Source of the DNA: an uncultured delta proteobacterium
GTDB taxonomy: Bacteria; Myxococcota_A; UBA9160; UBA6930
Reading direction: 5' to 3'
Assembly (NCBI GenBank): GCA_963716275.1
Contig: CAVQTC010000011.1
Location: 24,901-88,900, forward strand
Length of the DNA: 64,000 nucleotides
Shown: positions 4,705 to 55,684 of the stretch, in pieces
Position numbering within the stretch: the stretch's first letter is position 1
How the letters are laid out: every line of letters starts with the position of its first letter
Program-made: the position numbers and the translations under genes
The notes under the pieces: generated by a model
Seen by the model: the letters and a program-made list of their open reading frames with translations, nothing else
Told to the model about the DNA's origin: nothing
The model's database searches: none

Positions 4705-4811
4705 GGAGGTGGAGTTAACAGGGGGACGCTGGTTAACCGGGTTCGACAGCAGTCAGTACGACTACGTGGGCTCACCCGGTTAACCAGCGTCCCCCTGTTA
4801 ACTCCAGCTCC
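4705..4811. repeat. GGGGACG-family palindromic element E1 (38-bp inverted repeats, 31-nt spacer)
   Basis: 4705-4742 ggaggtggagttaacagggggacgctggttaaccgggt versus 4774-4811, 1 mismatch; starts directly after the TPR gene stop. Confidence 0.92.
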
Positions 4812-4817
4812 GTTCAA

Positions 4818-4844
4818 GCCTCATCGGGGGCCCGCCGATGAGGC
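4818..4844. other. GC hairpin (10-bp stem) upstream of the lysM gene
   Basis: gcctcatcgg-gggcccg-ccgatgaggc. Confidence 0.5.
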
Positions 4845-4901
4845 CGGGGAACCGGCGTGCGTCCCAGCTCGGGCGGCGCGCGGTCTCGTGCGGAGGGACT
4901 C

Positions 4902-6095
4902 ATGAGGCTCACGAAGCTCGCGTTGGCCGTCGGGCTGGCGCTCGCATTCGAAGGACCGCTCGCTGCGGAGGAGCAGGCGCCGCCCGCGTCCGCTTCCGAC
5001 GCGGCACAGGCCGACGCAACGCCCGCTGCGGCTCCCGCGGCCGCAGCCGAGGCGGACGCGCCCGTTCCGGGGCGGGAGCTCGGCCAGGCCGGCTACGACT
5101 CGCAGGGTCGCCCGGGCCGCATCCACGTCGTGAAGAAGGGCGACACGCTCTGGGACATCTCCGACGCCTACCTCGGCACGCCCTGGGTCTGGCCGTCGAT
5201 CTGGAAGGACAACACGGCGGAGGTCGAGAACCCCCACCGCATCTATCCCAGCGAGCGCATCTGGATCAGCCCCTACGAGATGCGCAAGGTCAGCGACGCC
5301 GAGGCCGCCGAGATGCTCGCGCGCACGCCCGCCGAGGAGGCCGCGCCGGTCGAGCCGATGCCCGCCGCGATCGCCGATCCGGATGGCCCGGAGCCCATGC
5401 ACCCGCGCGCCATGTACCACTACGCGGAGATCGACACGACGGGCTTCGTGACCCTCGAGGAGCTCGAGGGCGCCGCCTCCATCGTCGACGCCCCCACGCT
5501 GCGCACCATGCTCTCGGACAACACCGAGGTCGTGATCGGCCTGGGCGAGGGCGAGGTCGCCGTCGGCGACCAGCTCGACGTCTTCCGGCCCGGCGAGCTC
5601 GTGGTCGATCCGGCGACGAGCAAGAAGATCGGCCGCGTGACCGAGCAGCTCGGCTGGCTCGAGGTGACCGTGGTCCACAAGGAGTCGGCCACCGCCATCG
5701 TGCGCAAGTCGCGCTCCGAGATCGTGCGCGGCGACCACGTGATGCCGCGCCGCCACCGGGACCCCGACGTGGCGATCGGCGATCGCACGAGCGTCGAGGG
5801 CATGATCGCCTGGACGCCGAACCACCGGCTCCAGATGAGCCAGGGCGACGTCGTCTATCTGAACCGCGGCAGCCGCCAGGGCCTCGAGCTCGGCAGCCCG
5901 ATCGAGGTCTACGATCCGATGGGCAAGGAGCGCGACACGGTGCGCGACGAGGTGCGCGAGCTCCCGGATACGGTGATCGGGAAGGGCATCGTGGTCGACC
6001 TCTACGACGACACCGCGGTCGCGGTGGTGACGCACGCGACGGTCGAGCTGATGCGCGGGTACCGCTTCCGCGGCTCGGACTCGATCGCGCCCTGA
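4902..6095 (+). CDS. LysM peptidoglycan-binding protein (TsaP-like)
   Basis: Signal peptide; LysM motif HVVKKGDTLWDISDAYLGTPWVWPSIW...NPHRIYP; sits directly before dprA. Confidence 0.85.
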   Translation: MRLTKLALAVGLALAFEGPLAAEEQAPPASASDAAQADATPAAAPAAAAEADAPVPGRELGQAGYDSQGRPGRIHVVKKGDTLWDISDAYLGTPWVWPSIWKDNTAEVENPHRIYPSERIWISPYEMRKVSDAEAAEMLARTPAEEAAPVEPMPAAIADPDGPEPMHPRAMYHYAEIDTTGFVTLEELEGAASIVDAPTLRTMLSDNTEVVIGLGEGEVAVGDQLDVFRPGELVVDPATSKKIGRVTEQLGWLEVTVVHKESATAIVRKSRSEIVRGDHVMPRRHRDPDVAIGDRTSVEGMIAWTPNHRLQMSQGDVVYLNRGSRQGLELGSPIEVYDPMGKERDTVRDEVRELPDTVIGKGIVVDLYDDTAVAVVTHATVELMRGYRFRGSDSIAP

Positions 6096-6116
6096 ACGCG
6101 CCACGACGTTCGCACG

Positions 6117-6151
6117 CGCCCGCCGGCGTTCGCCGGCGGGCGTTTGCGTTT
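6117..6151 (+). terminator. Probable intrinsic terminator
   Basis: cgcccgccggcg-tt-cgccggcgggcg followed by tttgcgttt. Confidence 0.7.
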
Positions 6152-6213
6152 CGGGCCCTTGCAGCGCAGGCGCGGCGCGCGACGCTCGGCTCCTCCCCGG
6201 TCCCGGCGGGCAC

Positions 6214-7341
6214 ATGGACATCCTCGACGCGCGCGATCCGAGCGCGCGGCCCGCGCTCGTGGCCTGGCTGCGCGTCCAGCGCCGCTACGCCCTCCATCCG
6301 GAGGAGCTGCCGCCGGCCGTGCGCCGCGCGCGGGAGCCGGCGGCCGTGCTGGCCGCGGCGGGGATCCCGCGCGCGGGCGAGGCGCGCGTGGAGCGCGACT
6401 GCGCTGCGCTCGCCAGCTGCGCGGCGCGCGCGCTCCCGATCTCGTCGCCAGCCTATCCCGAGCGGCTGCGCAGGCTCCCCGACGCGCCGCCGCTCATCGT
6501 CGTGCGCGGCAACCCGGCGCTCTTCGCGGTGCGCGCCGTCGCCATCGTCGGAGCGCGCGCCGCCACCGTCTACGGGCGCGAGATCGCGCGCGAGCTCGCG
6601 GCGGCGGCGGCCCGCGCGGGGCTGCTCGTGGTCTCGGGGCTCGCGCGCGGGATCGACGCCTGTGCGCACGAGGCGGCGCTCGCCGCCGGGGGCGCGAGCC
6701 TCGCCTGGCTGCCGTGCGGCATCGATCGCATCTACCCGCCCAATCACCGGCGGCTCGGGCAGGCGCTGATCGCGGGGGGCGCCGTCGCCAGCGAGTTCCC
6801 GATCGGCACGCCCCCACGCGCAGCCTACTTCCCGCTGCGCAATCGCCTGATCAGCGGCCTCTCGGAGGCCGTGGTGGTGGTGGAGGCGCGCGAGCGCAGC
6901 GGCTCGCTCGTGACCGCGCGCCTCGCCGGCGACCAGAGCGTGGACGTGCTCGCGGTGCCGGGCTCGATCCGCTCGCCCACGAGCGCGGGGCCGAATCGGC
7001 TCCTGCGCGACGGCGCCGGCATGGTGACGTGCGCCGAGGATCTACTGCAGGCACTGGGGCTCCCGGCTCCCGACCGCCCCAGTGAGCCAATCGCTCCGCG
7101 CCGTCCGCCGGTCGCACCGCGCAGCGCGCCGGAAGCGCCTGCGCTGCTGGGTCGGATCCTGCGCGCGCTCCGCGCCGAGCCGCTCTCGCGCGATGCGCTC
7201 GCCGACCAGCTCGGCGAGGGCGCCGAGGCGATCGCCGGCGCGCTCGCGCAGCTCGAGGTCGCCGGCAGCGCGAGCGAGGATCGCGACGGCCGCTGGGTGC
7301 CCCGGGCCCTCGCGAGCGAGGAGAGCCCCGGCCGGCTATGA
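6214..7341 (+). CDS. dprA: DNA-processing protein DprA
   Basis: VAIVGAR, VVSGLARGID..AH, FPLRNRLISGLS, VVVEA.ERSGSL.TA. Confidence 0.93.
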   Translation: MDILDARDPSARPALVAWLRVQRRYALHPEELPPAVRRAREPAAVLAAAGIPRAGEARVERDCAALASCAARALPISSPAYPERLRRLPDAPPLIVVRGNPALFAVRAVAIVGARAATVYGREIARELAAAAARAGLLVVSGLARGIDACAHEAALAAGGASLAWLPCGIDRIYPPNHRRLGQALIAGGAVASEFPIGTPPRAAYFPLRNRLISGLSEAVVVVEARERSGSLVTARLAGDQSVDVLAVPGSIRSPTSAGPNRLLRDGAGMVTCAEDLLQALGLPAPDRPSEPIAPRRPPVAPRSAPEAPALLGRILRALRAEPLSRDALADQLGEGAEAIAGALAQLEVAGSASEDRDGRWVPRALASEESPGRL

Positions 7342-7348
7342 CCCCCGC

Positions 7349-8662
7349 ATGCAGGCGGTCGTCGTGGGGGCGGGGCTCGCGGGCTGCGAGGCGGCCTGGC
7401 AGCTCGCCGAGCGCGGCATCTCGGTCGCGCTCTACGAGATGAAGCCTGCGCGCTTCTCGCCCGCGCACGGGAGCCCCGAGCTCGCCGAGCTCGTGTGCAG
7501 CAACTCGCTGCGCGCGGCCGCGGTCGAGAATGCCGTGGGCCTCCTCAAGGAGGAGATGCGCCGGCTGGGCTCTCTCATCGTGCGCGCGGCCGACGAGACC
7601 GCGGTGCCCGCGGGCCGCGCGCTGGCCGTGGATCGGCTCGAGTTCTCGCGGCGGGTGACGGCGGAGATCGAGGGTCACCCGCGCATCGCGCTGCGGCGCG
7701 AGGAGGTGGCGCGCATCCCCGACGCGCCTCTCGTGATCCTCGCCACGGGGCCGCTCACGGCGCCCGCCCTCGCGAGCGAGCTCCAGGCGATCGTGGGCGG
7801 CGCATCGCTCTACTTCTACGACGCGATCTCGCCCATCGTGTACGCGGACTCGGTGGACGCCGCGGCCGGGTTCCGCGCGTCGCGCTGGGAGGACGGGCCG
7901 GGCGACTACCTGAACCTGCCGCTCGACGCCGCGCAGTACGAGGCCTTCGTGGCCGGCCTGTGTGCGGCCGATGCGGTCCCCGCCCATGCCTTCGAGAAGG
8001 CGCTCTACTTCGAGGGCTGCCTCCCGATCGAGGAGATGGCGCGCCGCGGGCCGGCGACGCTGCGCTTCGGGCCGATGAAGGCCGTGGGGCTCAGCGACCC
8101 GCGCACGGGCCGGCGCCCCTACGCCGTGGTCCAGCTGCGCAACGAGGACAAGCGCGGCTCGCTCTACAACCTGGTGGGCTTCCAGACGAAGCTCCGCCAA
8201 GGCGAGCAGCAGCGCCTGCTGCGGACGCTCCCCGGGCTGGCGGAGGCCGTCTTCGCGCGCCTGGGCTCCGTGCACCGCAACACCTACGTCGACGCGCCGC
8301 GCGTGCTCGACGGCGCCTTCGCGCTGCGCGCGCGGCCGAACGTGCTCTTGGCCGGCCAGATGACGGGCGTCGAGGGCTACGTGGAGAGCGCCGCCACGGG
8401 CCTTCTGGCCGGTCTTTTTGCGGCGGCGCGCTCGCGCGGCGCGCCGCGCCCGGAGCCGCCGCCCGAGAGCGCCCACGGCGCCTTGCTCGCCCACCTGCGC
8501 GAGGAGCGGCCCCACGGCTACCAGCCGATGAACGTGAACTTCGGCCTCTTTCCGCCGCTCGCCGAGCGGCCGGCCACACGGCTCGAGCGCAATCGGCGGC
8601 TGGCGGAGCGCGCGCTCGCGGAGCTCGACGGCTTCCGGCGCGCGAGCGAGGCGCTGGCGTGA
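7349..8662 (+). CDS. trmFO: Methylenetetrahydrofolate-tRNA-(uracil-5-)-methyltransferase TrmFO (Gid)
   Basis: [47 protein letters not shown]. Confidence 0.95.
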
Positions 8663-9585
8663 GCTGGGACGACGCGCTCGCCGCCTTCGGGCGCTTCCTG
8701 CGCTCGGAGCGCGGCTTCTCGGAGCACACGGCGCGCGCCTACCTCTCCGACGTGCGCCAGCTCGCGCGCCACGCGAAGGCGCGCCCGCAGCGCGTGAGCG
8801 CCGACGACGTGCGCGCCTTCCTCGCCAGCCAGCACCGCGCGCGCTCGCCCGCGACCCTGGGCCGGCGACTCGCCGCCGTGCGCGCGTTCTTCCGCTTCCT
8901 CGTGCGCGAGGGCGCGCGGCGCGCGGACCCGACGCTGGGCATCCCGGCGCCGCGCGCGCCGCGGCCGCTCCCGCGCCCGCTCGCGGTGGACGACTGCGCC
9001 GCGCTGCTCGACGCGCAGAAGGTCTCCGACGGAGAGCCAGAGCTCGGCGCGCTCCGCGACCAGGCGATGCTCGAGCTGCTCTACGGCGCGGGGCTGCGCG
9101 TGGGCGAGCTGGTCGCGCTCGACGTGCGCGACGTGGATCTCGTGAGCCGCGAGGTGCGCGTGTGGGGGAAGGGCGCGAAGGAGCGCGTCGTCCCGCTGCC
9201 CGAGGCGACGCAGCTCGCGCTGCGCGCTTACCTCGATCGCCGGCGCGAGCCCGGCGTCCTCGCCCAGCCGCTCTTCGCTTCGCTCCGCGTTCCTCGCGGA
9301 GCGAAGCCCCAAAGACTCGACGCGCGCGCCGTGCGCCGGCAGCTGCGCCGCCGCGCGAGCGCGGCGGGCCTCGCGGACCGCGTGCATCCCCATCGGCTGC
9401 GCCACAGCTACGCGACGCATCTGCTCGACATGGGCGCCGACCTGCGCGCCATCCAGGAGCTGCTGGGCCACGCGAGCCTCTCGACGACGCAGCGCTACAC
9501 CGCCGTCTCGGCGGAGCGGCTGGTCGCCGTGTACGATCGCGCGCACCCGCGCGCCCGCCGCGAGAGACGGAGAGAGATCTCGTGA
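8659..9585 (+). CDS. xerC: Tyrosine recombinase XerC
   Basis: [49 protein letters not shown]; trmFO-xerC-hslV order. Confidence 0.9.
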
Positions 9586-10117
9586 CGGAGCGCCTCCGCG
9601 CCACCACCGTGCTCGCCGTGCTGCGCGGCGGGAAGCTCGCCCTTGCCGCCGACGGGCAGGTGACGGTCGGCAACATCGTGATGAAGCAAGGCGCCAACAA
9701 GCTGCGCCTGATCGCGAAGGGCCGGGCGGCGCTGGGCTTCGCGGGCGGCGCCGCCGACGGGCTCGCGCTCACCGAGCGGCTCGAGGCGAAGCTCGAGCAG
9801 CACGCGAGCAGCGTGCGCCGCGCGGCCGTCGAGCTCGCGCGCGACTGGCGCACCGATCGCGCGCTGCGCCGGCTCGAGGCGCTCCTGATCGTCGCCGACG
9901 CCGAGAACGTGCTCGTGGTCTCGGGCAACGGCGACGTGATCGAGCCCGATGACGGCATCGCGGCGATCGGCTCGGGCGGACCCTACGCGCTCGCCGCCGC
10001 GCGCGCCCTCGCGCGCCACTCGACGCTCGGCGCCGAGGAGATCGCGCGCGCCGCCCTCGCGATCGCTGCGGAGATCTGCATCTACACGAACGCCAACGTG
10101 CAGCTGGTGACGCTCCC

Positions 10118-10121
<4 letters not shown>
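9582..10121 (+). CDS. hslV: ATP-dependent protease subunit HslV
   Basis: [46 protein letters not shown]. Confidence 0.95.
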
Positions 10122-11476
<1,355 letters not shown>

Positions 11477-11512
11477 AGGGTGGATGCCCGAGCGGTCGGG
11501 CGGGGTGAGTGC

Positions 11513-13940
<2,428 letters not shown>

Positions 13941-13947
13941 CTGCTAG

Positions 13948-14040
13948 TGGGGACGTTCGTTTACGAAGTTTACGAGGCCGAGCGGCAAGACCCGGATGCG
14001 ATGTCGGGGGCCTCGTAAACTTCGTAAACGAACGTCCCCA
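13948..14040. repeat. GGGGACG-family palindromic element E2 (perfect 32-bp inverted repeats, 29-nt spacer)
   Basis: tggggacgttcgtttacgaagtttacgaggcc (13948-13979) and its exact reverse complement (14009-14040). Confidence 0.93.
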
Positions 14041-14129
14041 GCCCGGCCGCCTGCCTCAGCTTCGGCCCTCGGTCCGCCGATACCCGCTTCGTTCCGGCCC
14101 CCTCTGTTTCTGGGGGTCTCGGGGGCGAC

Positions 14130-15422: not shown

Positions 15423-15443
15423 GCAAAGGATTCGGAGGACGGA

Positions 15444-17018
<1,575 letters not shown>

Positions 17019-18546: not shown

Positions 18547-18589
18547 GAGAATCGAAATTTCGGGGTCTGACCCCGGGATTTCGATTCTC
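18547..18589. repeat. GGGGTCTGACCCC-core REP-like palindrome (copy 1)
   Basis: gagaatcgaaat-ttc-ggggtc-t-gacccc-ggg-atttcgattctc; near-identical copy at 27989. Confidence 0.9.
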
Positions 18590-27539: not shown

Positions 27540-28012
27540 GGGGCTACCGCGGCTTCCTGCGCGAGATGCTGCGCACCGGCAGCTGGCGCGCGCTCTCCCT
27601 GCAGCTCCGCACCGGCGCGCGCCACGTCCTGCGCCGCGCGCTGCCCGCGCGCGCGGTCGACCCCGTCGCACAGTTCCTCAGTCATTACGGTGCCGACGGC
27701 GTGCGCGCGCCCCAACCGGCGGCGCGCGCGCTCGCGCTGGCGGCCTCGCAGTGTCAGGTGTGCGGGCTCTGCACGATCGAGTGTGCGCGCGTCGGGGGCG
27801 CGCCGCCCCTCGATCCGCGCGAGGCGGTGATCGCCGCGTCGCGGCTCGAGACGGACCTGTTGCGCTTCGACCTCGCGCGCGAGCTCGGCGATGCGACGTG
27901 CGGCGGCTGCGACGCCTGCGCACGCGTCTGCCCTGCGGGGGTTCCGATCCACCGTGTTCAGGAGCGGCTCGGCCAGCTCGAGGCGCTCGAGAATCGAAAT
28001 CCCGGGGTCTGA
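27536..28012 (+). CDS. Small 2x[4Fe-4S] dicluster protein (GlpC N-terminal-like)
   Basis: CQVCGLCTIEC and CGGCDACARVCP motifs; GTGA overlap with glpB. Confidence 0.75.
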   Translation: MRGYRGFLREMLRTGSWRALSLQLRTGARHVLRRALPARAVDPVAQFLSHYGADGVRAPQPAARALALAASQCQVCGLCTIECARVGGAPPLDPREAVIAASRLETDLLRFDLARELGDATCGGCDACARVCPAGVPIHRVQERLGQLEALENRNPGV

Positions 28013-28031
28013 CCCCGAGTTTTCGATTCTC
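27989..28031. repeat. GGGGTCTGACCCC-core REP-like palindrome (copy 2)
   Basis: gagaatcgaaat-ccc-ggggtc-t-gacccc-gag-ttttcgattctc. Confidence 0.9.
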
Positions 28032-31616: not shown

Positions 31617-31618
31617 CC

Positions 31619-32506: not shown

Positions 32507-32577
32507 GGGGACGTTCCTACTTGTTCACGGAGCTACGGTGCCGACCTCCGCAGTCGTGAACAAGTTGGAACGTCCCC
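32507..32577. repeat. GGGGACG-family palindromic element E3 (23-bp inverted repeats, 25-nt spacer)
   Basis: ggggacgttcctacttgttcacg (32507-32529) versus 32555-32577, 1 mismatch; GTAG at 32504-32507. Confidence 0.9.
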
Positions 32578-44217: not shown

Positions 44218-44221
<4 letters not shown>

Positions 44222-44976: not shown

Positions 44977-44993
44977 CTGGCATGGCAGTTGCT
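44977..44993 (+). promoter_or_regulatory. Sigma54 (-24/-12) promoter upstream of the ECF sigma genes
   Basis: C-TGGCAT-GGCAG-TTGCT matches TGGCAY-N5-TTGCW within an AT-richer intergenic region. Confidence 0.7.
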
Positions 44994-45060
44994 CCCGTCC
45001 TGCCAACGTGATCTCGCGCACACCCCCGAGAGGCCAGATTCGCCAGGGAGCCCCCCAAAG

Positions 45061-45729: not shown

Positions 45730-45793
45730 CGCGATCCCGCTCCGAGGCCGCTGAATCCTGCGGGGCAGCTCCGTCGCTGCCGCAGGCGGCGGC

Positions 45794-45822
45794 TTGACAC
45801 AATTTCGCCAGGCCCCGAAAGT
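45794..45822 (+). promoter_or_regulatory. Possible sigma70-type promoter for the second ECF gene
   Basis: Perfect TTGACA, 17 nt, weak -10 GAAAGT. Confidence 0.3.
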
Positions 45823-45922
45823 TCACGCGGCCTGCACGCTTTCCCCGCCACTTCTGCGCTGCGCTGACCACTATCTGGCCGGGACTCGCGCCAGGGACGT
45901 GCAGGCCCCGGGGGGTGGAAGT

Positions 45923-46570
45923 GTGGTAGCTCGGAAGGCCGAGCCCCGACTGCGCCGTGAGCACGCGAGGCGCCGCGACCCGAACGACGTCCAGGCCGCC
46001 GAGTCCGACGAGGTCCTGCTCTCCCACGTTCAGCGCGGGAGCGAGGCCGACTTCAACGCGCTCTACGCGCGCTACTTCGCGCGCATCTACGGCTTCGTGC
46101 GGCTGCGCGTAGGCGATCGCTCGGATGCCGAGGAGCTGACCCAGGAGGTCTTCGCCTCGGTCTTCCGCTCGTCGGGGGGCTTCAACGCGCGCTCGAGCGT
46201 CCTTTCCTGGATCTACGGCGTTGCGCGCAACACCGTCCTGAGTCACCTCCGCCGCAAGCACACCCAGCGCGAGCGCCTGGACCGCTTCACCCCCGAGCTC
46301 GCCGCCTCGAGCCCTCGCACCTTCACCCCCGAGGAGCAGGTGCGCGGCGATCGCTTCGCGCTCGAGCTCGAGCGGCGCATCGGGCAGCTCGCCCCGTGGC
46401 AGCTCGACGCGTTCCGTTTGCGCCACGTGGAAAATCTTCCCATCGAGGAGATCTCGCGCCGCACGTCGCACTCGGCGGACGCCGTCCGCTCGGGCCTTTA
46501 CCGCGCGAAACGCCTCCTACTCGATGGTCTCTCGCCGGACGGTACGAGCGCCCGGGAGGACGACGCGTGA
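45923..46570 (+). CDS. ECF RNA polymerase sigma factor (paralog of the upstream one)
   Basis: DAEELTQEVF...WIYGVARN; IEEISRRTSHSADAVRSGLYRAKR. Confidence 0.88.
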   Translation: MVARKAEPRLRREHARRRDPNDVQAAESDEVLLSHVQRGSEADFNALYARYFARIYGFVRLRVGDRSDAEELTQEVFASVFRSSGGFNARSSVLSWIYGVARNTVLSHLRRKHTQRERLDRFTPELAASSPRTFTPEEQVRGDRFALELERRIGQLAPWQLDAFRLRHVENLPIEEISRRTSHSADAVRSGLYRAKRLLLDGLSPDGTSAREDDA

Positions 46571-46836
46571 AGTGGTTGCTCTTCGAGCGCTTGGGCCGGC
46601 GCCTCTCGCGCTTTGCGGGGCGCCCGCCGGCTGCGGCGGGCTCGCCGGCCCGCGCGGAGCGCGGGCAGCGGATGCCCCCGGAAGTCGCCGCCGAGTTCAC
46701 CACCGAGGAGCTCGCGGAGTTCCTCGAAGGCGACGTCCATCCCAGCGATGCCCGGCCGGAGTTCCGCGACAAGCTTCGGCGCGAGCTCTGGGAGATGGTC
46801 CAGGATCTGTACGGGCACAAGGTAGGTCGCGACTGA
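46567..46836 (+). CDS. Small hypothetical protein (possible soluble anti-sigma)
   Basis: GTGA overlap with ECF2; helical EELAEFL...ARPEFRDKLRRELW segment. Confidence 0.5.
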   Translation: MKWLLFERLGRRLSRFAGRPPAAAGSPARAERGQRMPPEVAAEFTTEELAEFLEGDVHPSDARPEFRDKLRRELWEMVQDLYGHKVGRD

Positions 46837-47465
46837 CCGCCGGCTCGGCGCCCGATAGCTGGCAGCCTCCGACCCGGGCCGAGCTCGCCCGCTCGCCGCG
46901 GCGTCTCTTGAGTCAGGGCCGGCTCGCCAAGCCCGACGTCCTCTTGATCTCGCACGCGGGCCGCGACGTGGTCGTGAAGGACTTCGCGGCGCGCTCGGCC
47001 TGGCTCCGCGCCACGCTCGGGCGGCTCTTCGCGCGGCGCGAGGCGCGCGCCTGGGCAGCCCTCTCGGGCCACGCGGCGGTGCCGCGCTATCTCGGTGCGA
47101 TCGACGCGCTCGCCTTCGCGGTCGAGTACCGACCGGGCCGCGCGCTGACCCAGCGGCTGGCGCCGTTCGTATCCGGCGCGTTCGTCGATCAGCTCGACCG
47201 GGCCATCGCCGAGATGCACGCGCGCGGGGTCGTGCACCTCGACCTGCGCCACCGCAGCAACGTGCTGCTCGGCGACGACGGCTCGCCGGTGCTGATCGAT
47301 TTCGGCTCGGCGCTGGTCGCGCCGCCGGGGAGCCGGCGCGCGCGCGCGACTCGCAGGCTGCTCGGCTGGATCGACCGCTCGGCGCTCGCGAAGTGGCGCG
47401 CCTACGCCTCGCCGGGAGCGGGCACGCGCTCGGCAGGCTCGCGAGGCGCGAGCCGCCCGATGTAG
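46833..47465 (+). CDS. RIO1/Kdo-like protein kinase-fold protein (start uncertain)
   Basis: VVKDF, REARAW, HARGVVHLDL..SNVLL, LIDFG. Confidence 0.72.
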   Translation: MTAGSAPDSWQPPTRAELARSPRRLLSQGRLAKPDVLLISHAGRDVVVKDFAARSAWLRATLGRLFARREARAWAALSGHAAVPRYLGAIDALAFAVEYRPGRALTQRLAPFVSGAFVDQLDRAIAEMHARGVVHLDLRHRSNVLLGDDGSPVLIDFGSALVAPPGSRRARATRRLLGWIDRSALAKWRAYASPGAGTRSAGSRGASRPM

Positions 47466-47992
47466 TGGCGGAAGGTCTCGAGCGTGAGCCGCGCGTCGGC
47501 GAGCGCTCGGTGCGCGACCTGGTTCTGCACCAGCCCGGCCCGCGTCGCCGACTGGCGCAGCGAGAGCGCCTCGACCTTCTCGCCGGACACGAGCGACCAC
47601 GCGTAGAAGAGCGTCGCGAGATCGATCACGTGATAGTCGAAGGGGAAGGGCAGGGCGCAGCTCTTGTACGCCCGCTCGAGGAAGGCGACGTCCATGCGGA
47701 CGTTCTGTCCGGCCGGCACGACCTTCGGCCCCTTGGGCAGCAGGGCGGCGAGCTCCGTCAGCGCCTGGCGCACCGGCACCGCCTCGGCCGCCCACAGCGC
47801 GGCGTCGTAGCCGGAGATCTCGATCGACTCCTGGGTGATGCGCTCGGGCCGCGCGATCACCTTCCACTCTCGCGTCGCGAGCTCCGCCAGCCGCTCGTCG
47901 GTCACGATCACGCCGATCTCGGTGATGTCGTGAAGCTCGGGGTCGAGGCCGCCGAACTCGCAGTCGAGAAAGGCAAAGGCGAAGTCGGTCAT
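47402..47992 (-). CDS. DEDDh 3'-5' exonuclease (oligoribonuclease/DnaQ-like); alternative start at 48064
   Basis: LDCEFGGLD...ITEIG, GQNVRMDVAFL, HRALAD. Confidence 0.85.
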   Translation of the reverse strand: MTDFAFAFLDCEFGGLDPELHDITEIGVIVTDERLAELATREWKVIARPERITQESIEISGYDAALWAAEAVPVRQALTELAALLPKGPKVVPAGQNVRMDVAFLERAYKSCALPFPFDYHVIDLATLFYAWSLVSGEKVEALSLRQSATRAGLVQNQVAHRALADARLTLETFRHYIGRLAPREPAERVPAPGEA

Positions 47993-48065
47993 GGTCGTCG
48001 CCACCCGCCAGATCGCCCTCGCCTGTTCCAGAGAGGGGTGAAAGGCAAAGGCGAAGTCGGTCATG
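47968..48065. repeat. 26-bp exact direct repeat, 72-bp period
   Basis: gaaaggcaaaggcgaagtcggtcatg at 47968-47993 and 48040-48065. Confidence 0.9.
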
Positions 48066-48069
48066 AAGC

Positions 48070-48145
48070 TGGCGCTCCCTACGGGAGTCGAACCCGTGTT
48101 TCGGCCTTGAGAGGGCCACGTCCTAGGCCACTAGACGAAGGGAGC
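48070..48145 (-). tRNA. tRNA-Glu (CTC)
   Basis: GCTCCCT/AGGGAGC acceptor stem, anticodon loop CTCTCAA, GGTTCGACTCC T-arm, encoded CCA. Confidence 0.96.
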
Positions 48146-48356
48146 GAGGGCCGCGCACCCTAGCCGGTCTCTCCGCAGTTCGTCCACATCGGCGCGGGCC
48201 GCCCGCGGTGACGATTTTGGGCGCTCGCCAGCCCGGGCTCGTCACCCGAGAGCGTCGCGAGCTCTCGCGTCTCGCGTTAGGGCGCCGGCCGCGATTGCGC
48301 GCGGCGCCGTCAAGTTCGGCCCAGCGCTTGCCGATGGCATGCGTGCGCCCGAGGCG

Positions 48357-48373
48357 TTGGCACATCGGTTGCT
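48357..48373 (+). promoter_or_regulatory. Sigma54 promoter of pilA
   Basis: TTGGCAC-ATCGG-TTGCT consensus about 90 bp upstream of the pilin start. Confidence 0.85.
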
Positions 48374-48463
48374 GAATGCCGGGCCAACGCCAATCCGGGC
48401 GAAGCCGCCCACAGGGCATGTTGCCGTGTGGAGGTTGCTCGGACCAAGGGAGAACGAGACGAA

Positions 48464-49021
48464 ATGCGCAAGCTTCTCACGCGCAAGGGCGGCTTCACGC
48501 TCATCGAGTTGATGATCGTGGTCGCCATCATCGGGATTCTCGCGGCCATCGCGATCCCGAACTTCCTGATGTTCCAGCTCCGCAGCAAGACGGGTGAGGC
48601 GAAGACCAACCTCGCCGCGATCCGCACGGCCGAGGAAGGCTACTTCGCCGAGTTCGGCCGCTACATCGGCACGCCGGCGGCGCTGCCCGCCGGTGGTGCG
48701 CAGACGACCAAGACGAACTGGCCCGCGGTGGCGGCCGGCTTCGACACGGTCGGCTGGGCGCCCGAGGGTGAGGTGTACTTCATGTACGGCGTCACCATCA
48801 ACGGTGCCTCGACGTCGTACACGGCGGACGCCCTCGCCGACCTCGATGGCGACGGCCAGACGTCGGACTTCGGCTACGTCCACCCGATTCCGGGCGCCGC
48901 GGCCGGTCTCGGCGGCATGCAGGGCGCGTGCGCGGGTACCGGCGTGTTCGACGGCGCCGCCGCCACGCTGCTGAACTCGGTCGGTCCGTGCGCGCAGGCG
49001 GACGGCCAGAGCGACTTCTAA
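48464..49021 (+). CDS. pilA: Type IVa major pilin
   Basis: Prepilin site KGG|FTLIELMIVVAIIGILAAIAIPNF; DLDGD motif; C-terminal Cys pair. Confidence 0.92.
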   Translation: MRKLLTRKGGFTLIELMIVVAIIGILAAIAIPNFLMFQLRSKTGEAKTNLAAIRTAEEGYFAEFGRYIGTPAALPAGGAQTTKTNWPAVAAGFDTVGWAPEGEVYFMYGVTINGASTSYTADALADLDGDGQTSDFGYVHPIPGAAAGLGGMQGACAGTGVFDGAAATLLNSVGPCAQADGQSDF

Positions 49022-49035
49022 GCGCTCTCGATCTC

Positions 49036-49064
49036 GGGAGGGCCGGACGATCTCCGGCCCTCCC
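49036..49064 (+). terminator. Hairpin or terminator after pilA
   Basis: gggagggccgga-cgatc-tccggccctccc; weak U-tract. Confidence 0.6.
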
Positions 49065-49118
49065 ACACCCTTTCACCTTCTCCCCGAATCCCAAGCCCAG
49101 CCAACAGGAACCCAAATC

Positions 49119-49675
49119 ATGGAACGCGCGACCAAGCGACAGGACGGGTTCACGCTGATCGAGCTCATGATCACGGTGGCCATCATCGGGATCCTCGCGT
49201 CCACCGCGTTGACGCTCTTCGTCAGCCAGCAGATGCGCTCGAAGCGCACCGAGGCGATGACCAACGTCGAGTCCCTGGCGAAGATGGCGAAGGGATATTT
49301 CGGCGAGCAGGGCTTCTATCCGAGCGTGGCCGGCTACTGGCCCGCTCCGATTCCGAACGCCAAGCCGATTCCTTGGGACAATGCCTCCTCGGCGTTTCGG
49401 CGCGATCGGCTTCCGCGCCGAGGGCGCGGTCCGCTACCGCTACGACCTCGATGGCCGCACGGACTGCGGCTGCCCGGATTGCTTCACCGCGGCGGCCTTC
49501 GGCGACCTCGACGGCGACGCCGTTTCCGTCCGTGGTCGGCTACTTCCATCCGCCCGCGGTAGGCCCCGTCTGCGTCACCAGCATCGGCGCCTACGGCCCC
49601 GATCCGCCGCGGCGCTGGCTTCGTCCTCGACGAGACGCACGCACTGGTCCGAACCCCCTCGCGGACGACTACTGA
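49119..49675 (+). CDS. Second type IV pilin (apparent frameshifts near 49392 and 49525)
   Basis: QDG|FTLIELMITVAIIGILA; IGFRAEGAVRYRY and AFGDLDGD in a shifted frame. Confidence 0.78.
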
Positions 49676-49712
49676 TCCCAGGCCGATGCCCGCGCGCACT
49701 TTCGAGGGGGAG

Positions 49713-50622
49713 ATGCGCAGGATTCTTCAGCGCCTAGCGCTCGCAGTCGTCGCAGTCACCGGCATCGCGGCCGCTGGCTCTCGCGTTCCGGATCGGCCGC
49801 TCGCGAGCGACGACGAGGCCTTCGTGCCCGACCCGCAGCTCGCGAAGCTGCTCGCGGCCGGCTTCGAGGCAGCGCTCGCGGACCTGCACTGGATGCGCGC
49901 CGTGCAGGTGGTCGGGAGCGAGGCGGGCCCGGTGGGCCGCAATCGCCTGCTGGGTGCGCTGGTCGACGTGGTGACGACCCTCGATCCCTGGGTCGACCAC
50001 CCGTACCGGTTCGCCGCCGTCTGGCTGACCGACGACGAGGGCGCGGTGCGCAAGGCCGACGAGATTCTGCGGCGCGGGATCGCCCACCACCCGGACGACT
50101 GGCGCCTCCACTTCTATCTCGCCTTCAACCAGTTCTTCTACCTGGGCGAGTGGCAGGCGGCGGCCGCCGCGCTCGAGCCGGCGATCGCGCTTCCCGAAGC
50201 GCCGGCCTATCTCCCGCGCCTGCTCGCGCGCCTCAAGACCGAGACCGGCGGGCTCGCCGCCTCGGCGGCCTTCCTGCACGAGATGGCGGAGCAGGCCCCC
50301 GACGCGTACAGGCGCGCCGAGTACGAGAAGGCGCTCGACGAGGTCGAGACCGAGCAGCGCGCGCGCTACCTGGACGCTGCGCGCGCCGAGTACCTCCACC
50401 GCTTCGGGCGCGACATCGAGCGCGTCTCGGATCTGCGTGGACCGGGGCGTGCTCCGCGAGCTCCCGCGCGAGCCGAACGGCTGGGAGTGGGAGCTCTCGC
50501 CGGAGACCCGCGAGATCGTCTCCAGCTACGTGAAGTTCCGCTACCGCGTGAAGATCGACGCAATGAACCGACAGCTGCTCGAGCGCTTCCGGGAGCGCTC
50601 GCACGCCGGGGGCCACGGCTGA
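49713..50622 (+). CDS. PilG/XapA-like pilus accessory protein (frameshift near 50432)
   Basis: ALADLHWMRAVQ...VTTLDP...Y.FAA; TPR-like segment; lies between the pilins and the ABC genes. Confidence 0.72.
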
Positions 50623-51574
50623 TGCAGGACCAAGAGGTGCTGGTACGGGTCGAAGCGCTGGTGAAGGACTTCCGCCCGGGTTTCGGGCTGCGCAAGAAGC
50701 GCGTGTTGCACGGCATCGACTTCGAGGTGCGCCGCGGCGAGATCTTCGGCTTCATCGGCCCGAACGGCGCCGGCAAGACCACGACGCTGAAGATCCTGTT
50801 GGGCCTGATCCGCGCGAGCGCGGGCCGCGCGAGCGTGCTCGGCCACGACGTGCGCGAGACCGAGTTTCGCCGCCACGTGGGCTTCTCGCCGGAGAGCCCC
50901 TACTTCTACGACTTCCTGACCGGCGCCGAGACCGTGGACTTCTACGCGCGCCTTTGTGGCGTGCCGCCCGGCGAGCGCCCAGCGCGCGTCGCCAGGGTGC
51001 TCGACCAGGTCGGCCTCGCCTACGCCGCGGGGGCCCGCCTGCGCACCTACTCGAAGGGCATGCTGCAGCGCATCGGAGTCGCGCAGGCCATCGTGCACGA
51101 TCCGAGCGTGGTCTTCCTCGACGAGCCGATGAGCGGGCTCGATCCGGTCGGGCGCAAGGAGATCCGCGACCTGATCGTGCGCCTGAACGGCGACGGCAAG
51201 ACGATCTTCATGAACACGCACATCCTGGCCGACGTGGAGATGATCTGCGATCGCGTGGCGATCATCGTGGACGGGCGCATCGCCTATCAGGGCGTGCTGG
51301 CCGGAGCGCTCCGGCGGACATGCGCCACTTCGACGTGACCTTCTCCTCGCTCGCGCCGGAGTTCGCCGAGGAGGCCCCCTGCCGCTTCGGCGCCGAGCTC
51401 TCGGGCCGCGGCGACTGCGTCACGCTGCGCGTGGCGGAGAAGGAGGCGAGCGAGCTGATCCAGGCCGCCCTCGCGCGTGGCGCGCTGATCGAGGAGGTAT
51501 TGCCGGCGCGGGCGGGCCTCGAGGCGCTCTTCCTCGACGCGGTGGCCGGCAAGCTCCGGGAGGGCGCACGATGA
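50622..51574 (+). CDS. ABC transporter ATP-binding protein, PilH-like (frameshift near 51300)
   Basis: [31 protein letters not shown]. Confidence 0.88.
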
Positions 51575-52347
51575 GCTGGCGCAGCGCCGTCCTGGCGATC
51601 GCGGCGAACACGCTGCGCGACGCGATCCGCAGCCGGGTGCTCTACGTGCTGCTCTTCTTCGCGATCGTGATGATCGCGACCAGCGCGACGCTCGCGACGC
51701 TCTCCTACGTGGAGCGCGAGCGCATCCTGCAGGACGTGGGCTTCGCCGCGATCCGCTTCTTCGGCGCCGCGATCGCGATCTTCATGGGCGTGGGGCTGAT
51801 CCACCGCGAGGTCGATCGGCGCACGATCTACACGATCCTCTCCAAGCCGGTCTCGCGCAGCGCCTTCATCGCCGGCAAGTACGTGGGCTTCGTGGCCACG
51901 CTCTGGCTCCAGCTCGCGGTGATGTCGCTCTGCTTCGCGCTCGTCTCGCTCGCCGCCGGCGCACCGCTCGGCGTGGGCCATGCGATCGCGCTGGGGCTCA
52001 CCGCCCTCGAGCTCGCCGTGGTCGTGGCGCTGGCGACGCTCTTCTCCTCGTTCTCGAGCCCCTTCCTGGCGGGCTGCTACAGCCTGGGCCTCTACCTGGT
52101 CGGACATCTGACGCGCGACCTGCGCGCGCTCGGGGCCTCCTCGCAGTCGGAGCTGGCGCGCGAGATCACGCTCTGGCTGCACCGGCTGCTCCCCGACCTC
52201 GAAGCGTTCAACCGCACGATCGAGGCCGTGCACCAGCTGCCGATCCCGCCCCAGGAGGTGCTGTGGTCCGCGCTGATGGGCGTCTCCTGGTGCCTGGGCC
52301 TCTTGCTCGTCGCGGTCTTGACCTTCGAGCAGCGCGACTTCCGGTAG
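51571..52347 (+). CDS. ABC transporter permease, PilI-like
   Basis: IAANTLRDAIRSR, EVDRRTIYTILSKPVSR..F..GKY, multiple TM segments, FEQRDF end. Confidence 0.88.
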   Translation: MSWRSAVLAIAANTLRDAIRSRVLYVLLFFAIVMIATSATLATLSYVERERILQDVGFAAIRFFGAAIAIFMGVGLIHREVDRRTIYTILSKPVSRSAFIAGKYVGFVATLWLQLAVMSLCFALVSLAAGAPLGVGHAIALGLTALELAVVVALATLFSSFSSPFLAGCYSLGLYLVGHLTRDLRALGASSQSELAREITLWLHRLLPDLEAFNRTIEAVHQLPIPPQEVLWSALMGVSWCLGLLLVAVLTFEQRDFR

Positions 52348-52356
52348 CCTCGCGCG

Positions 52357-53223
52357 ATGGCGGCCAGCTCGGAGCTCGCGCTCACGCCGGTCGGGCTGGC
52401 CCTCGCGGGCGCCCTGGGGCTGGTGGTGGGCTCGTTCCTGAACGTCGTGATCCACCGCGTCCCGCGCGGCGAGTCGATCGTGACGCCGCGCTCGCGCTGC
52501 CCCGCCTGCCAGCGCCCGATCGCGGCGTGGCAGAACGTGCCCGTGCTCTCCTTCGTGTTTCTGCGCGGCCGCTGCGGCGGCTGCGGCGCCTCGATCTCCT
52601 GGCGCTATCCGCTCGTGGAGCTCGCGACGGGCGGCGTGTTCGTCGCCGTGGCGTTCGCGTACGGCGTGAGCGCGCTGACCCCGCTCTTCTGGCTCTTCGC
52701 CGCGGGCCTGATCGCCGCCGCCGGAATCGACGCGGACGAGCGCTGGATCCCCGACTCGATCTCGCTCGGCGGGCTCGCCCTCGGGCTCGCGCTCGTCCCG
52801 CTCGCGCGCTGGCAGGGCGGCGCGAGCTATCTCGACGCGCTCTCGAGCTCCGCGCTCGGCGCGGCGCTCGGCGGCGGCGCGCTCTGGTTGGTGGGCTTCC
52901 TGCACGCGCGGCTCTGCGACGCGCTGGGTCGGACCTTCGACCACTGGCCGGGGGAGGGCGTCCCGCGCCCGCGACCGAGCAGCCTCGACTACTGGACCTG
53001 GTTTCCCGGCATGGGCTTCGGCGACGTGAAGCTGATGGCCGCGGTGGGCGCCTTCGTCGGGCCCCTGGGCGCCCTCCATACGATCTTCCTGGCGGCGATC
53101 TTCGGGCTCGTGCTCGGCCTCGCTCCGCTCCTCGCGCGCCGCTCGCTGGCGGCGCCCTTCGGCCTGGGCCCCGCGATCGCGCTCGCGGCCGTGGTCGCCG
53201 CGGTGCTGCCGGCGCCTCTTTAG
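52357..53223 (+). CDS. pilD: Prepilin peptidase
   Basis: GSFLNVVIHRVP, SRCPAC, LRGRCGGC..SISWRYPLVE, GMGFGDVKL. Confidence 0.92.
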   Translation: MAASSELALTPVGLALAGALGLVVGSFLNVVIHRVPRGESIVTPRSRCPACQRPIAAWQNVPVLSFVFLRGRCGGCGASISWRYPLVELATGGVFVAVAFAYGVSALTPLFWLFAAGLIAAAGIDADERWIPDSISLGGLALGLALVPLARWQGGASYLDALSSSALGAALGGGALWLVGFLHARLCDALGRTFDHWPGEGVPRPRPSSLDYWTWFPGMGFGDVKLMAAVGAFVGPLGALHTIFLAAIFGLVLGLAPLLARRSLAAPFGLGPAIALAAVVAAVLPAPL

Positions 53224-53322
53224 GGGACGCTGGTTGACTACGTGTCAACTTGGGGACGCTGGTTGAAACGCGTGCGTTTCAACCAGCGTCCCCAAGTTGA
53301 CACTTAGTCAACCAGCGTCCCC
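53223..53322. repeat. GGGGACG-family palindromic element E4 (49-bp arms, 2-nt centre, nested inner copy)
   Basis: 53223-53271 versus 53274-53322, 1 mismatch; inner complete copy at 53252-53293. Confidence 0.94.
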
Positions 53323-53417
53323 GCTCAACCCGCTCGGGGGGCGCGCCGAAACGCACGGCAGTCGGGGAGGAGTTGCCCTTGCTGCGCGCACTTGGAGCGG
53401 GTGTCTGCCGGCGCACG

Positions 53418-55586
53418 ATGGGGGTGGGGCTCGCCTTGCTCGGGGCCCTGGGCTGCAATCGCATCCAGGCCGAGCACGGGCCCGCGCCGAGCGGACCGAG
53501 CGTCCTGCTCGTCACGATCGACACCCTGCGCGCCGACCACGTGGGCGCGTATGGGGATGCGCAGGCGCACACGCCCACGCTCGACGCGCTCGCGGCCGGC
53601 GGCGCCACCTTCGAGCAGGCCATGGCGAGCGTGCCTCTCACGCTGCCTTCGCACACCTCCATCCTGACCGGCCTCTATCCGCCGCATCACGGCGTGCGAC
53701 ACAACGCGGTGTTCCGCCTGGACGAGTCCGTGGAGACGATCGCCGAGCGCTTCCAGAAGGGCGGCTACGCGACGGGGGCCGTGATCGGCGCCGACGTGCT
53801 CTCGCACTCCTTCGGCCTCGCGAAGGGCTTCGACCAGTACGACGACCACGTGGCGGGCGCGCGCGCCGGCGAGGCCGGCTTCGCCGAGCGCAAGGCGACG
53901 GCGGTGACCGACGCCGCGCTCGCGTGGCTCCTCCAGGAGCCGCGGCCCTTCTTCCTCTGGGTCCACTACTACGACGTGCACGCGAAGTACGATCCGCCCG
54001 AGCCCTATCGCAGCCAGGCCGGGAGGAGCCTCTACGACGGCGAGGTCGCCTACGTCGATCACGAGCTCGGCCGCGTGCTCGCCGCGCTGCGCGAGCAGGG
54101 CCGGCTCGCGAACACCGTCGTCGCGGTGACGGCCGATCACGGAGAGGGGCTGGGCGAGCACGGCGAGCCCAGCCACAGCTACCTGATCTACGACTCGGTG
54201 CTGCACGTGCCGTTGATCCTCCAGGGTCCGGGCGTTCCAGCGGGCGCGCGCATCGAGCGAGTCGTCTCGAACGTCGGGCTCGCGCCGACGCTGCTCGCGC
54301 TGGCCGGGCTCCCGGCCCTCGCTCGGCAGGACGTGGCCGATCTCGCGCCCAGCTGGCGAGGACAGGATCGCGAGCCGGGCTGGGCCTACGCCGAGACGCT
54401 CGCGGGCCAGCTCGACTTCGGCTGGGCGCCGATCTACGCGATTCGCAGCGAGCGCGAGAAGTGGATCCGCGCGCCGCGCAGCGAGTGGTACGACCTCGCG
54501 AGCGACCCGCACGAGCTCCACGACCTCTTGGCCGGCGGCGCCGCGCCGCGCGAGCGCGTCGCTGCGGCCGAGGGCCGACTCGCCAGCGTGCGCAAGGACG
54601 AGCGCGAGATCGCGACGCGCGAGGTCGACGCCGAGACGCGCGCGCACATCGAAGCCCTGGGCTACGCGATCCCCGGGGCGGGAGCCACGGGGGGTGAGCT
54701 CGACGGCGCGGACCCGAAGGACGTGCACAAAAAGGCGCGCCTCGGCGTCGACGCGCTCGCCGCCTACTTCGAGAAGCGCTACGCGGATGCCGAGCGCATC
54801 GCGCTCGAGGGCCTGCGCGCAATGCCGCGCAGCGTGCAGCTGAACGAGATCCTCGCGCGCCTCTATCTCGAGACGGGGCACTGGACCCAAGCGATTCCCT
54901 ACGCCGAGGCGACCGTGCGCTACCTGCCGAGCTGGCCGGGTCACCACGTGCAGCTCGGCCTCGCCTACCTGGGCACCGCCGACACCGAGCGCGCCGTGCA
55001 CTGCTTCGACGAGGCGCTGCGCCTCGATCCCGACAACGTGGGCGGCCACCTGGGCAGCATGTGGCGCGCGAAGCTCGGCCTCCCGGTGGAGGAGGCGGCG
55101 CAGCACGCCGCGCGCGCCCTCGAGCTCGCGCCCGACGACCCGCTCGTGGCCGACACGATCGGCGAGACCTGGGAGTCGCTCGGCCAGTACGACCGCGCGC
55201 TCGAGGTCTACGAGGGCGCGCTCGCGCGCTTCCCCAACGACCCGCGCGTGCACATGCGCCTCGCGATCCAGTACGCGCGCTTCGGCGACGGCGAGCGCTC
55301 CGCGGCGGAGCTCGCGAAGGCGGGCGCCCTCGCCCAGGACGCGCGCCTCGCGAGCCGGCTCGGCATCGTGTACGCGGCGCGCGGCGAGTACGCCCGGGCG
55401 GAGCCGCTCTTCCGGGCGATCCTTCAGCGCGAGCCGCGCTCGCGCGTGCGGCTCTACCTCGCGCGCCTGCTGCGGGAGACGGGCCGCGCGCCGGAGGCGG
55501 ACGCGCTGCTCGATGCGGCCGTCGAGGCGCCGGGTCCGACGCCCATCCTGGACGGCCTGATGCCGGAGGCTCGCCCGCGCGGCTAG
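53418..55586 (+). CDS. Sulfatase-like (alkaline phosphatase superfamily) lipoprotein with C-terminal TPRs
   Basis: Lipobox LGALG-C; VTIDTLRAD, LTLPSHTSILTG, ADHGE, HVPLI; TPR tail. Confidence 0.85.
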   Translation: MGVGLALLGALGCNRIQAEHGPAPSGPSVLLVTIDTLRADHVGAYGDAQAHTPTLDALAAGGATFEQAMASVPLTLPSHTSILTGLYPPHHGVRHNAVFRLDESVETIAERFQKGGYATGAVIGADVLSHSFGLAKGFDQYDDHVAGARAGEAGFAERKATAVTDAALAWLLQEPRPFFLWVHYYDVHAKYDPPEPYRSQAGRSLYDGEVAYVDHELGRVLAALREQGRLANTVVAVTADHGEGLGEHGEPSHSYLIYDSVLHVPLILQGPGVPAGARIERVVSNVGLAPTLLALAGLPALARQDVADLAPSWRGQDREPGWAYAETLAGQLDFGWAPIYAIRSEREKWIRAPRSEWYDLASDPHELHDLLAGGAAPRERVAAAEGRLASVRKDEREIATREVDAETRAHIEALGYAIPGAGATGGELDGADPKDVHKKARLGVDALAAYFEKRYADAERIALEGLRAMPRSVQLNEILARLYLETGHWTQAIPYAEATVRYLPSWPGHHVQLGLAYLGTADTERAVHCFDEALRLDPDNVGGHLGSMWRAKLGLPVEEAAQHAARALELAPDDPLVADTIGETWESLGQYDRALEVYEGALARFPNDPRVHMRLAIQYARFGDGERSAAELAKAGALAQDARLASRLGIVYAARGEYARAEPLFRAILQREPRSRVRLYLARLLRETGRAPEADALLDAAVEAPGPTPILDGLMPEARPRG

Positions 55587-55589
55587 GGC

Positions 55590-55684
55590 GGGGAACGCTC
55601 GTTGGCGACGTTTACGAATTCCGAAACCGACTCGGACACTTGCGAACGAGCGAAAGTTTCGTGAACTCGTCAACGAACGTCCCC
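55590..55684. repeat. GGGGACG-family palindromic element E5 (degenerate)
   Basis: Left ggggaacgctcgttggcgacgtttacgaa; right-arm reverse complement ggggacgttcgttgacgagttcacgaa; GTAG foot on the - strand. Confidence 0.8.

Follow-up and report, generated by a model that had tools for sequence, protein, structure and literature searches.

The 64,000-nt stretch analysed here (the window; positions 24901-88900 of contig C11 in genome G000, GenBank assembly GCA_963716275.1, from an uncultured delta proteobacterium of the Myxococcota_A) contains five long palindromes, E1 to E5, which lie directly downstream of stop codons and share outer ends reading GGGGACG, hereafter the tag. These palindromes are very probably non-autonomous hairpin repeats resembling REPINs, the inverted doublets of repetitive extragenic palindromes (REPs), and belong to a TIRYT/RAYT system (RAYT, REP-associated tyrosine transposase) whose putative enzymes are HUH Y1 transposases with a probable C-terminal helix-turn-helix (HTH). 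The assembly (4.30 Mb in 20 contigs, ~72% G+C) is rated 80% complete, and the nearest relative of its sucD gene in the named genome collection is a Myxococcota metagenome-assembled genome, with 79% amino-acid identity.

E1 (4705..4811), a type C palindrome (arm types are given below) made of the core arm GGGGACGCTGGTTAAC, an outer module bearing GTTAAC and a 31-nt centre, abuts the stop codon of a TPR gene (2164-4704); its 38-nt arms are 97% complementary. E2 (13948..14040, type D) lies between argB and a DnaJ-TPR gene and has 32-nt arms, 100% complementary, around a 29-nt centre. It is preceded by a half copy, a single type B arm on the plus strand (13926..13947), which the argB frame enters and where it finds its TAG (13938-13940). 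E3 (32507..32577, type I) begins 12 nt past the sucD stop codon, has 23-nt arms, 96% complementary and 25 nt apart, and shows the one-position T/A arm asymmetry present in 7/7 of the type I copies displayed. E4 (53223..53322), a nested, two-module type B palindrome 3' of pilD, has 49-nt arms, 98% complementary and separated by 2 nt, and its first G is the last G of the pilD TAG stop codon. E5 (55590..55684), a decayed type D palindrome, fills the gap between the stop codon of a sulfatase-TPR gene (55586) and the ATG of a methyltransferase gene (55690), and falls outside the 25 longest inverted repeats of the window.

All five elements start 0-12 nt past a stop codon (of the TPR protein, argB, sucD, pilD and sulfatase-TPR genes, respectively). 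The computed folding energy of the single-stranded DNA is -29 to -63 kcal/mol for E1-E4 (z -7.4 to -19) and -26 kcal/mol for E5 (z -3.5). The sequence GGGGACGYTS was found 12 times in the window versus 1.16 expected, a number reached in 0/100 shuffles, and the elements have 56-61% GC versus 72% for the window. The positions of the five elements and of the half copy, their closeness to stop codons, their AT-richness, the shared outer ends with a degenerate E5 and the 23-49 nt over which the arms of E1-E4 match (96-100% complementarity) had all been described in an initial annotation made from the letters alone, and are thus confirmed. Of the E1-E3 spacers, said there to be unique and 25-31 nt long, the lengths held and the uniqueness did not, the E2 centre being found again on contig C2 (27 nt, 96%).

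A whole-genome search, which the initial annotation had proposed, retrieved a large family. The tag occurs 1,301 times in the 4.3-Mb genome, and 275 arms fall in repeat families, defined by clustering the 26 nt downstream of each genomic GGGGACG. These arms make up 151 loci, 101 of which are paired with the tag outward at both ends; a single pair shows the opposite orientation and ~45 loci are single arms. By a stricter pattern, adjacent +/- pairs are 32-121 bp long in 110/116 cases. About ten arm subfamilies, of 6-73 arms each, were distinguished by rules of our own: B (73 arms), A (48), C (37), D (25), I (14), E and G (13 each), F (12), H (9) and J (6), with 25 unassigned variants. Within a pair the two arms share one type, and seemingly mixed A/I pairs are an artefact of overlap between the A and I rules. 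Nested or modular loci also exist, with forms such as the ++-- of E4. At C6:491772-491904 a symmetric composite was observed, in which a type C palindrome sits inside a type A/I-like arm pair with the same junction on both sides. The view of the arms as copy-specific has therefore to be abandoned: they seemed to differ between copies because about ten multi-copy subfamilies replicate as whole palindromes. Similarly, the GT(A/G)G foot, taken at first as a link to RAYT enzymes, is at chance level, GTR abutting GGGG in 5/251 outer ends versus 5.0 expected; C precedes the tag in 53% of ends, and G in 5%.

The family is linked to transposase genes by the arms that enclose them. Three arm pairs lie 933-982 bp apart, each enclosing an open reading frame (ORF) with the motifs HHVM-RG, LMPNH-H and Y--RNP. 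In the whole genome, Y1_Tnp (PF01797) matches 14 genes of two classes. Class 1 comprises four genes, R1, R2, R4 and R6, to which tblastn adds none, all with the motifs HHVM-RG, NH-H and Y--RNP and with scores of 38-44 bits (38.5 and 43.5 for the R1/R2 pair) versus a cut-off of 23. R1, R2 and R4 are each bracketed by a pair of inverted single arms, the subfamily differing from gene to gene: R1 (C16:251131-252063) lies between an F-like and a G/J-like arm, both of CTCG type, R2 (contig C3) between type C arms, the arm type of E1, and R4, apparently frameshifted, between type A arms. R6, with an apparently frameshifted N-terminus, lies between two complete copies of a second family of palindromes. 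The window itself contains no Y1 (PF01797) gene of this kind, as first noted, and the repeat-flanked PF01797 gene that the initial annotation had suggested looking for was found, for R1, R2 and R4, elsewhere in the genome; its proposal of REPIN-like inverted doublets tied to HUH Y1 enzymes is thereby supported. By our own reading of the sequences, the four bases following the tag would pair the arms with the genes, CTGG (types B and C) going with R2, CTCG/CTCC (F, G and J) with R1 and TTCC (A, E, H and I) with R4.

Alignment of 18 homologs showed that the HUH histidines and the tyrosine, in N69, H70, H72 and Y129, are invariant in 18/18 sequences, and that a C-terminal block with an invariant R251 is conserved. 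When the 18-homolog profile was compared with the PDB, the sole match was E. coli TnpA-REP (4ER8, E = 0.0025); the PDB search with a single sequence gave no match. Class 2 consists of 10 paralogs of ~235 aa (e.g. the Y1_Tnp-like loci C6:465456-465662 and C2:105675-105881), with the HUH motif in ...QRDHAH... and with 71-96% DNA identity along approximately the whole gene. The three repeat families of this genome are absent within 400-2,500 bp of all 10 copies, and this class was therefore set aside.

Evidence of movement comes from the insertion sites and from sibling copies. Among 86 pairs, direct repeats of 0, 1, 2 and 3 nt flank 66, 13, 5 and 2 of them, versus 65.5, 12.3, 6.0 and 1.6 with shuffled flanks; the counts match and no target duplication is present in the 86 pairs. 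Symmetry of the outer flanks, as would mark palindromic target sites, is also at chance, but 10/86 pairs carry an extra outer module. Two sibling relations were found between copies at unrelated loci, E2 with the copy on contig C2 and C16:96122 with C8:10238, which have arms and centre in common and whose homology starts and stops exactly at the tag. In addition, a metagenome contig without E5 joins 55587 to 55687 via 25 unrelated letters, with 2 mismatches in 134 flanking bases (98.5%). A CRISPR-like origin of the centres, or their capture from target DNA, was considered and, on searches of this genome, rejected because siblings at unrelated loci have the same centre. When 43 centres were blasted against the genome, 3 had a real partner (the 2 sibling relations) and the other 5 matches were of 16-20 nt with E = 0.004-0.04.

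Terminal inverted repeats (TIRs), small size and many copies are also what would be expected of ordinary miniature inverted-repeat transposable elements (MITEs), which would derive by deletion from a DDE-type insertion sequence whose TIRs begin with GGGG (e.g. a Tn3-like end) and be moved by a DDE transposase, and this genome does hold one family of that appearance (163 bp, 25-nt ends, CTAG-like flanks). We reject this origin for the tagged palindromes, and regard it as exceedingly improbable, because the 86 pairs, equal to the shuffled expectation, reveal no target duplication. Moreover, Y1 HUH genes are the only genes found between matching arms, and the centres are not conserved, versus 92% in the DDE-type control family of the same genome. 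In type C, the core arms are 98% identical between copies and the centres 55%, versus 52% when shuffled, with a centre length of 38-43 nt in 14/15 copies (one of 14 nt). Types D, F, G, H, I and J resemble C; overall, the arms are 88-98% conserved and the centres remain at random level.

The symmetry of the two arms within a copy, already remarked in the initial annotation, proved to extend to their variants, since arm changes tend to be mirrored. Non-consensus positions were mirrored in 20 cases versus 0.9 under independence in type A, 23 versus 1.2 in C, 10 versus 0.6 in D, 9 versus 0.6 in I and 8 versus 0.4 in F; type E gave only 1 versus 0.6. Such a marked excess over independence could arise if a single arm with a few adjacent bases were the primary unit and the second arm were made by fold-back or template-switch synthesis (quasipalindrome correction), with no need of selection. 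In line with this possibility, there are ~45 single-arm loci, 12 of the private variants are mirrored (versus 36 one-sided), and the one arm difference between the siblings C16 and C8 is mirrored, T>C in one arm and A>G in the other. On the contrary, most of the mirrored variants are common to several copies, which fits replication of the whole palindrome and would mark sublineages multiplied as such; arms and centre travel together in the sibling pairs; the sibling of E2 carries two unmirrored arm changes; and the type I asymmetry, retained in 7/7 copies, indicates that arms are not simply equalised. For REPINs, mirrored changes have been explained as compensatory change under selection for the hairpin, according to the text of Bertels & Rainey (2011; PMC3116915). 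Altogether, we hold fold-back synthesis as the primary process to be very improbable, and multiplication of whole palindromes is retained as the preferred explanation.

The distribution of the system was then considered over the 31 genomes of the order, which are kin and not independent samples. An R2 homolog (E <= 1e-10) is present in 16/31, all 8 congeners included. At 14/20 homolog loci in relatives the flanking inverted repeats contain GGGGACG and in 2 more GGGGTCAGACCCC; 4/20 have neither tag, 2 of these 4 being shortened by contig ends. Past the tag, the arms vary between genomes of the order. In other phyla, 10/17 loci of homologs (29-56% identity) are flanked by inverted repeats of the GGGG[AT]C type, ~6 of which read (G)GGGACG, and the tag was also seen around homologs in Elusimicrobiota, Negativicutes and Clostridia. 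Palindromes counted as GGGGACG-N55-85-CGTCCCC pairs numbered 111 in G000 and 62, 59, 35, 33, 31 and 23 in six other genomes, versus 0-6 with the reversed pattern as control. Among these related genomes the median was ~21 pairs in the 16 bearing a homolog versus 3 in the 15 without.

Comparison of orthologous junctions, also proposed at the outset, revealed empty sites for all five window elements in every congener keeping the junction: E3 and E4 are missing in 5/5 congeners, E2 in 4, E1 in 3 and E5 in 3, the sulfatase gene itself being absent in two further congeners. In congeners argB ends earlier, without the type B arm of the half copy. Four congeners likewise lack the R2 unit, its site there being a gap of 138-171 bp versus 1,094 bp. 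The R1 locus, instead, holds a homolog in 4/5 congeners (loci L177-L181), with 39-48% amino-acid identity to R1, flanking DNA 75-84% identical and flanking arms that differ past the tag, a pattern suggesting either rapid co-divergence or replacement at a fixed site. As a separate observation, the sulfatase-TPR gene (53373-55586) is absent in congeners G005 and G007, and the methyltransferase gene directly follows pilD there.

Copies are placed at the 3' end of genes. Placement was evaluated on 2,630 candidate ORFs picked by length and codon-position G+C, a crude ORF/GC3 heuristic (GC3, third-position G+C). By this map, 141/151 loci lie outside any candidate ORF. A stop codon is found within 300 nt for 103 loci, at a median of 4 nt and at no more than 15 nt in 77/103, and a quarter overlap the stop codon, the frame entering the element and terminating inside. 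The 45 paired loci with both neighbours called fall in 21 convergent, 22 tandem and 2 divergent gaps, versus 193, 790 and 172, respectively, in the genome, and in 17/22 tandem gaps the element is nearer to the stop than to the next start. The elements are scattered among housekeeping genes and form no arrays.

Such a placement, together with arms conserved beside centres at random level and with the presence of R1 at the same locus in 4/5 congeners, would also be expected if the palindromes were immobile host elements kept for a function of their own (hairpins at transcript 3' ends, working as terminators or mRNA stabilisers, or protein-binding sites), the transposase-like genes being domesticated or irrelevant. 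This explanation appears improbable. None of the window sites is occupied in congeners, so that a site-specific function is not conserved, and siblings at unrelated loci and the contig lacking E5 bespeak recent gain or loss. No T-run follows any of E1-E5 in the sequence itself, and none of them was called by a terminator scan, which accepts loops of 3-8 bases and is thus blind to E1-E3 in any event. About ten distinct arm sequences would moreover be needed for one function. A host role is nonetheless compatible with mobility, and both can coexist. Accordingly, we can envisage, as an unlikely variant, that in this high-GC Myxococcota lineage the palindromes have been taken over as standard hairpins of gene 3' ends, with centres drifting and arms preserved at each locus through selection or homogenisation by the enzyme, while the HTH-bearing tyrosine enzymes maintain or seed copies at stop codons; the tag, seen around homologs of other phyla as well, could be a TIRYT counterpart of GTAG, i.e. 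a universal recognition or cleavage signal.

Returning to the mobile hairpin repeats of a TIRYT/RAYT system, their mechanism can be modelled on IS200/IS605 and on the biochemistry of E. coli TnpA-REP; enzyme binding, the position of the cut, which strand moves and when, and a possible role for the host are inferred. The element consists of two inverted arms with outer ends (C)GGGGACG and a centre of fixed length and free sequence, and several transposase paralogs are each bracketed by inverted single arms of their own subfamily group. In single-stranded DNA, e.g. at the replication fork, the palindrome might fold into a hairpin, in which the enzyme would recognise the shared tag plus a paralog-specific arm and cut at or near the tag. 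The whole palindrome would then be moved or copied without target duplication. Copies persist mostly just past stop codons, where they do little harm and may also serve as 3' hairpins of the RNA.

Several observations weigh against this reading. First, the enzymes are a putative transposase class, whose activity and role here are predicted from sequence. The HTH_23 matches are below the Pfam cut-off of 24.6, both in R2 (residues 248-283, E = 1.2e-4, 22.2 bits) and in R1 (17.4 bits), and R1/R2 reach 60.1 and 54.8 bits with NCBIfam REP_Tyr_transpos (NF047646), versus a cut-off of 80. Second, there are only four class-1 genes for about ten subfamilies, R4 and R6 look frameshifted, and type D (TTCG; E2 and E5) has no cognate gene in the 80%-complete assembly; incomplete assembly might account both for the genes that are missing and for the two frameshifts. 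Third, gene and repeats do not always occur together. Palindromes were found without a homolog (E <= 1e-10) in G023 (13 pairs, 73% complete) and G028 (18 pairs, 95% complete), and G007 has homologs yet only 2 pairs in that size range. According to the text of Quentin et al. (2018; PMC6006769), no REP-like sequences were detected beside genes of TnpA-REP subclass 2.1. Fourth, the allele lacking E5 is one contig of depth 4, and the stop-codon statistics depend on our own crude gene map. Finally, copying alone fails to explain conserved arms beside random centres, so that the arms must be constrained or homogenised; the cause may be a need to remain transposable, a role for the host at the 3' ends of transcripts, or correction by template switching.

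Two other repeat families are present. The second palindrome family, 43 bp long and with arms GAATCGAAAT around a GGGGTC-W-GACCCC centre, has 41 genome copies, including the two around R6 and two in the window (18547..18589 and 27989..28031). The third family is represented in the window at 56716-56880, next to a tRNA gene (56567-56637), by an element of 163 bp whose inverted ends are 25 nt long (AGTCCCCCGAGTC...) and whose flanks are TAG/CTAG-like. It has 26 end matches genome-wide and 7 full-size copies, with TIRs 93% and centres 92% identical, and from its sequence it looks like a DDE-type MITE. Rfam gave no matches in the window besides two tRNA genes, the one just mentioned and another at 48073-48145, both on the minus strand. 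Finally, argB (AA_kinase) is split across the overlapping frames 12301-13536 and 13479-13940, by a frameshift or an assembly error, and its second piece ends, with its last few codons and its stop codon, inside the type B half copy.

These data extend REPIN-like populations to the Myxococcota and tie them to the HTH-bearing TIRYT/subclass 2.1 branch of Y1 enzymes. In the texts of the two papers concerned, that branch is described with only moderately abundant repeats (PMC3733652) or with no REP-like neighbours (PMC6006769). The system spans the order with one shared 7-nt tag and lineage-specific arms, and comprises about ten subfamilies and 3-4 paralogs in one genome, so that a split between recognition of a common tag and of private arms becomes testable. 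The repeats also supply or displace stop codons, as in argB and pilD. They may hamper the assembly of such genomes, in which their annotation as repeats is advisable.

Among known systems, integron attC sites share with the palindromes the conserved ends and variable centres; attC sites form arrays beside an integrase gene and have RYYYAAC/GTTRRRY core sites, whereas the elements described here are dispersed. IS200/IS605 elements employ an HUH Y1 enzyme that recognises hairpins in single-stranded DNA and leaves no target duplication. Their hairpins are two different subterminal ones and not whole-element palindromes, and their transposase has no HTH extension. The HUH Y1 enzyme and the lack of target duplication are common to our family and to IS200/IS605 with its miniature derivatives, whereas the whole-element palindrome and the probable HTH distinguish our family.

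The CGTC-tagged REPs, as outlined in the text of Di Nocera, De Gregorio and Rocco (2013; PMC3733652), are short stem-loops that have 8-9 bp stems starting with A-T pairs, loops of 4-5 nt and a CCA tail, and no associated transposase. On the opposite strand our tag reads CGTCCCC, which includes CGTC, and both kinds form head-to-head dimers 3' of genes; the arms here are however 16-49 nt long and Y1-linked.

The likeness to the REPIN-RAYT systems of Pseudomonas and E. coli is closer. As reported there, inverted hairpin doublets with invariant ends enclose a spacer that is less conserved yet of fixed length, where length and hairpin capacity count, and compensatory changes are common (Bertels & Rainey 2011, PMC3116915, from its text). 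The present family shares these features, as well as the extragenic site and a repeat type of its own for each Y1 gene. One gene, R1, is syntenic across the genus, while the R2 unit is absent in 4 congeners. The text of Bertels et al. (2017; PMC5581495) restricts highly abundant flanking 16-mers to RAYT groups 2 and 3. The differences are the lack of a GTAG tag, arms that are long inverted repeats and themselves small hairpins only in some types, and the probable extra HTH domain. The family therefore behaves like a REPIN-RAYT system and departs from it in two canonical traits, the GTAG tag and a score above the NCBIfam cut-off.

The closest description is that of the TIRtrons or TIRYT elements, RAYT-like genes inside long inverted repeats with GGGGWSAS, which form moderately abundant families, often dimers (Di Nocera, De Gregorio and Rocco 2013; PMC3733652). 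TIRYT have been equated with TnpA-REP subclass 2.1, defined by a C-terminal Bac_DnaA_C, HTH_23 or HTH_28 (Quentin et al. 2018; PMC6006769). The idea that an undescribed kind of family had been met thus does not hold, as far as the texts of these two papers describe it. The match to a described REP/MITE family that the initial annotation had named as grounds for refutation exists at the level of kind; these particular subfamilies do not appear in the literature found, and a search (RAYT/REPIN in myxobacteria, TIRYT, TIRtron) that left many subscription papers, figures and supplements outside yielded no published description of the GGGGACG repeats. With respect to abundance, 151 loci in about ten subfamilies, an unusually rich collection, contrast with TIR families called "moderately abundant" in the text, and a term search of PMC3733652 and PMC6006769 for Myxococcota gave 0 matches. 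The motif GGGG[AT][CG]A[CG] of TIRYT is fitted by the second palindrome family (GGGGTC-W-G), by the type A inner module GGGGACAC and by GGGGTCAG variants, whereas the main tag GGGGACG(C/T) departs from it at position 7. Inverted repeats flank R1, R2, R4 and R6 as well as 16/20 homolog loci. As in the TIRYT described, a RAYT-like HUH protein of the Y1 type, with a putative HTH at its C-terminus (HTH_23-like, by the weak match below cut-off reported above), is encoded inside inverted repeats with a GGGG-initial motif, the repeats are dispersed and mostly dimers, and several paralogs per genome each have their own repeats. In anatomy and gene link, the family thus matches the TIRYT/TIRtron class, i.e. 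TnpA-REP subclass 2.1.

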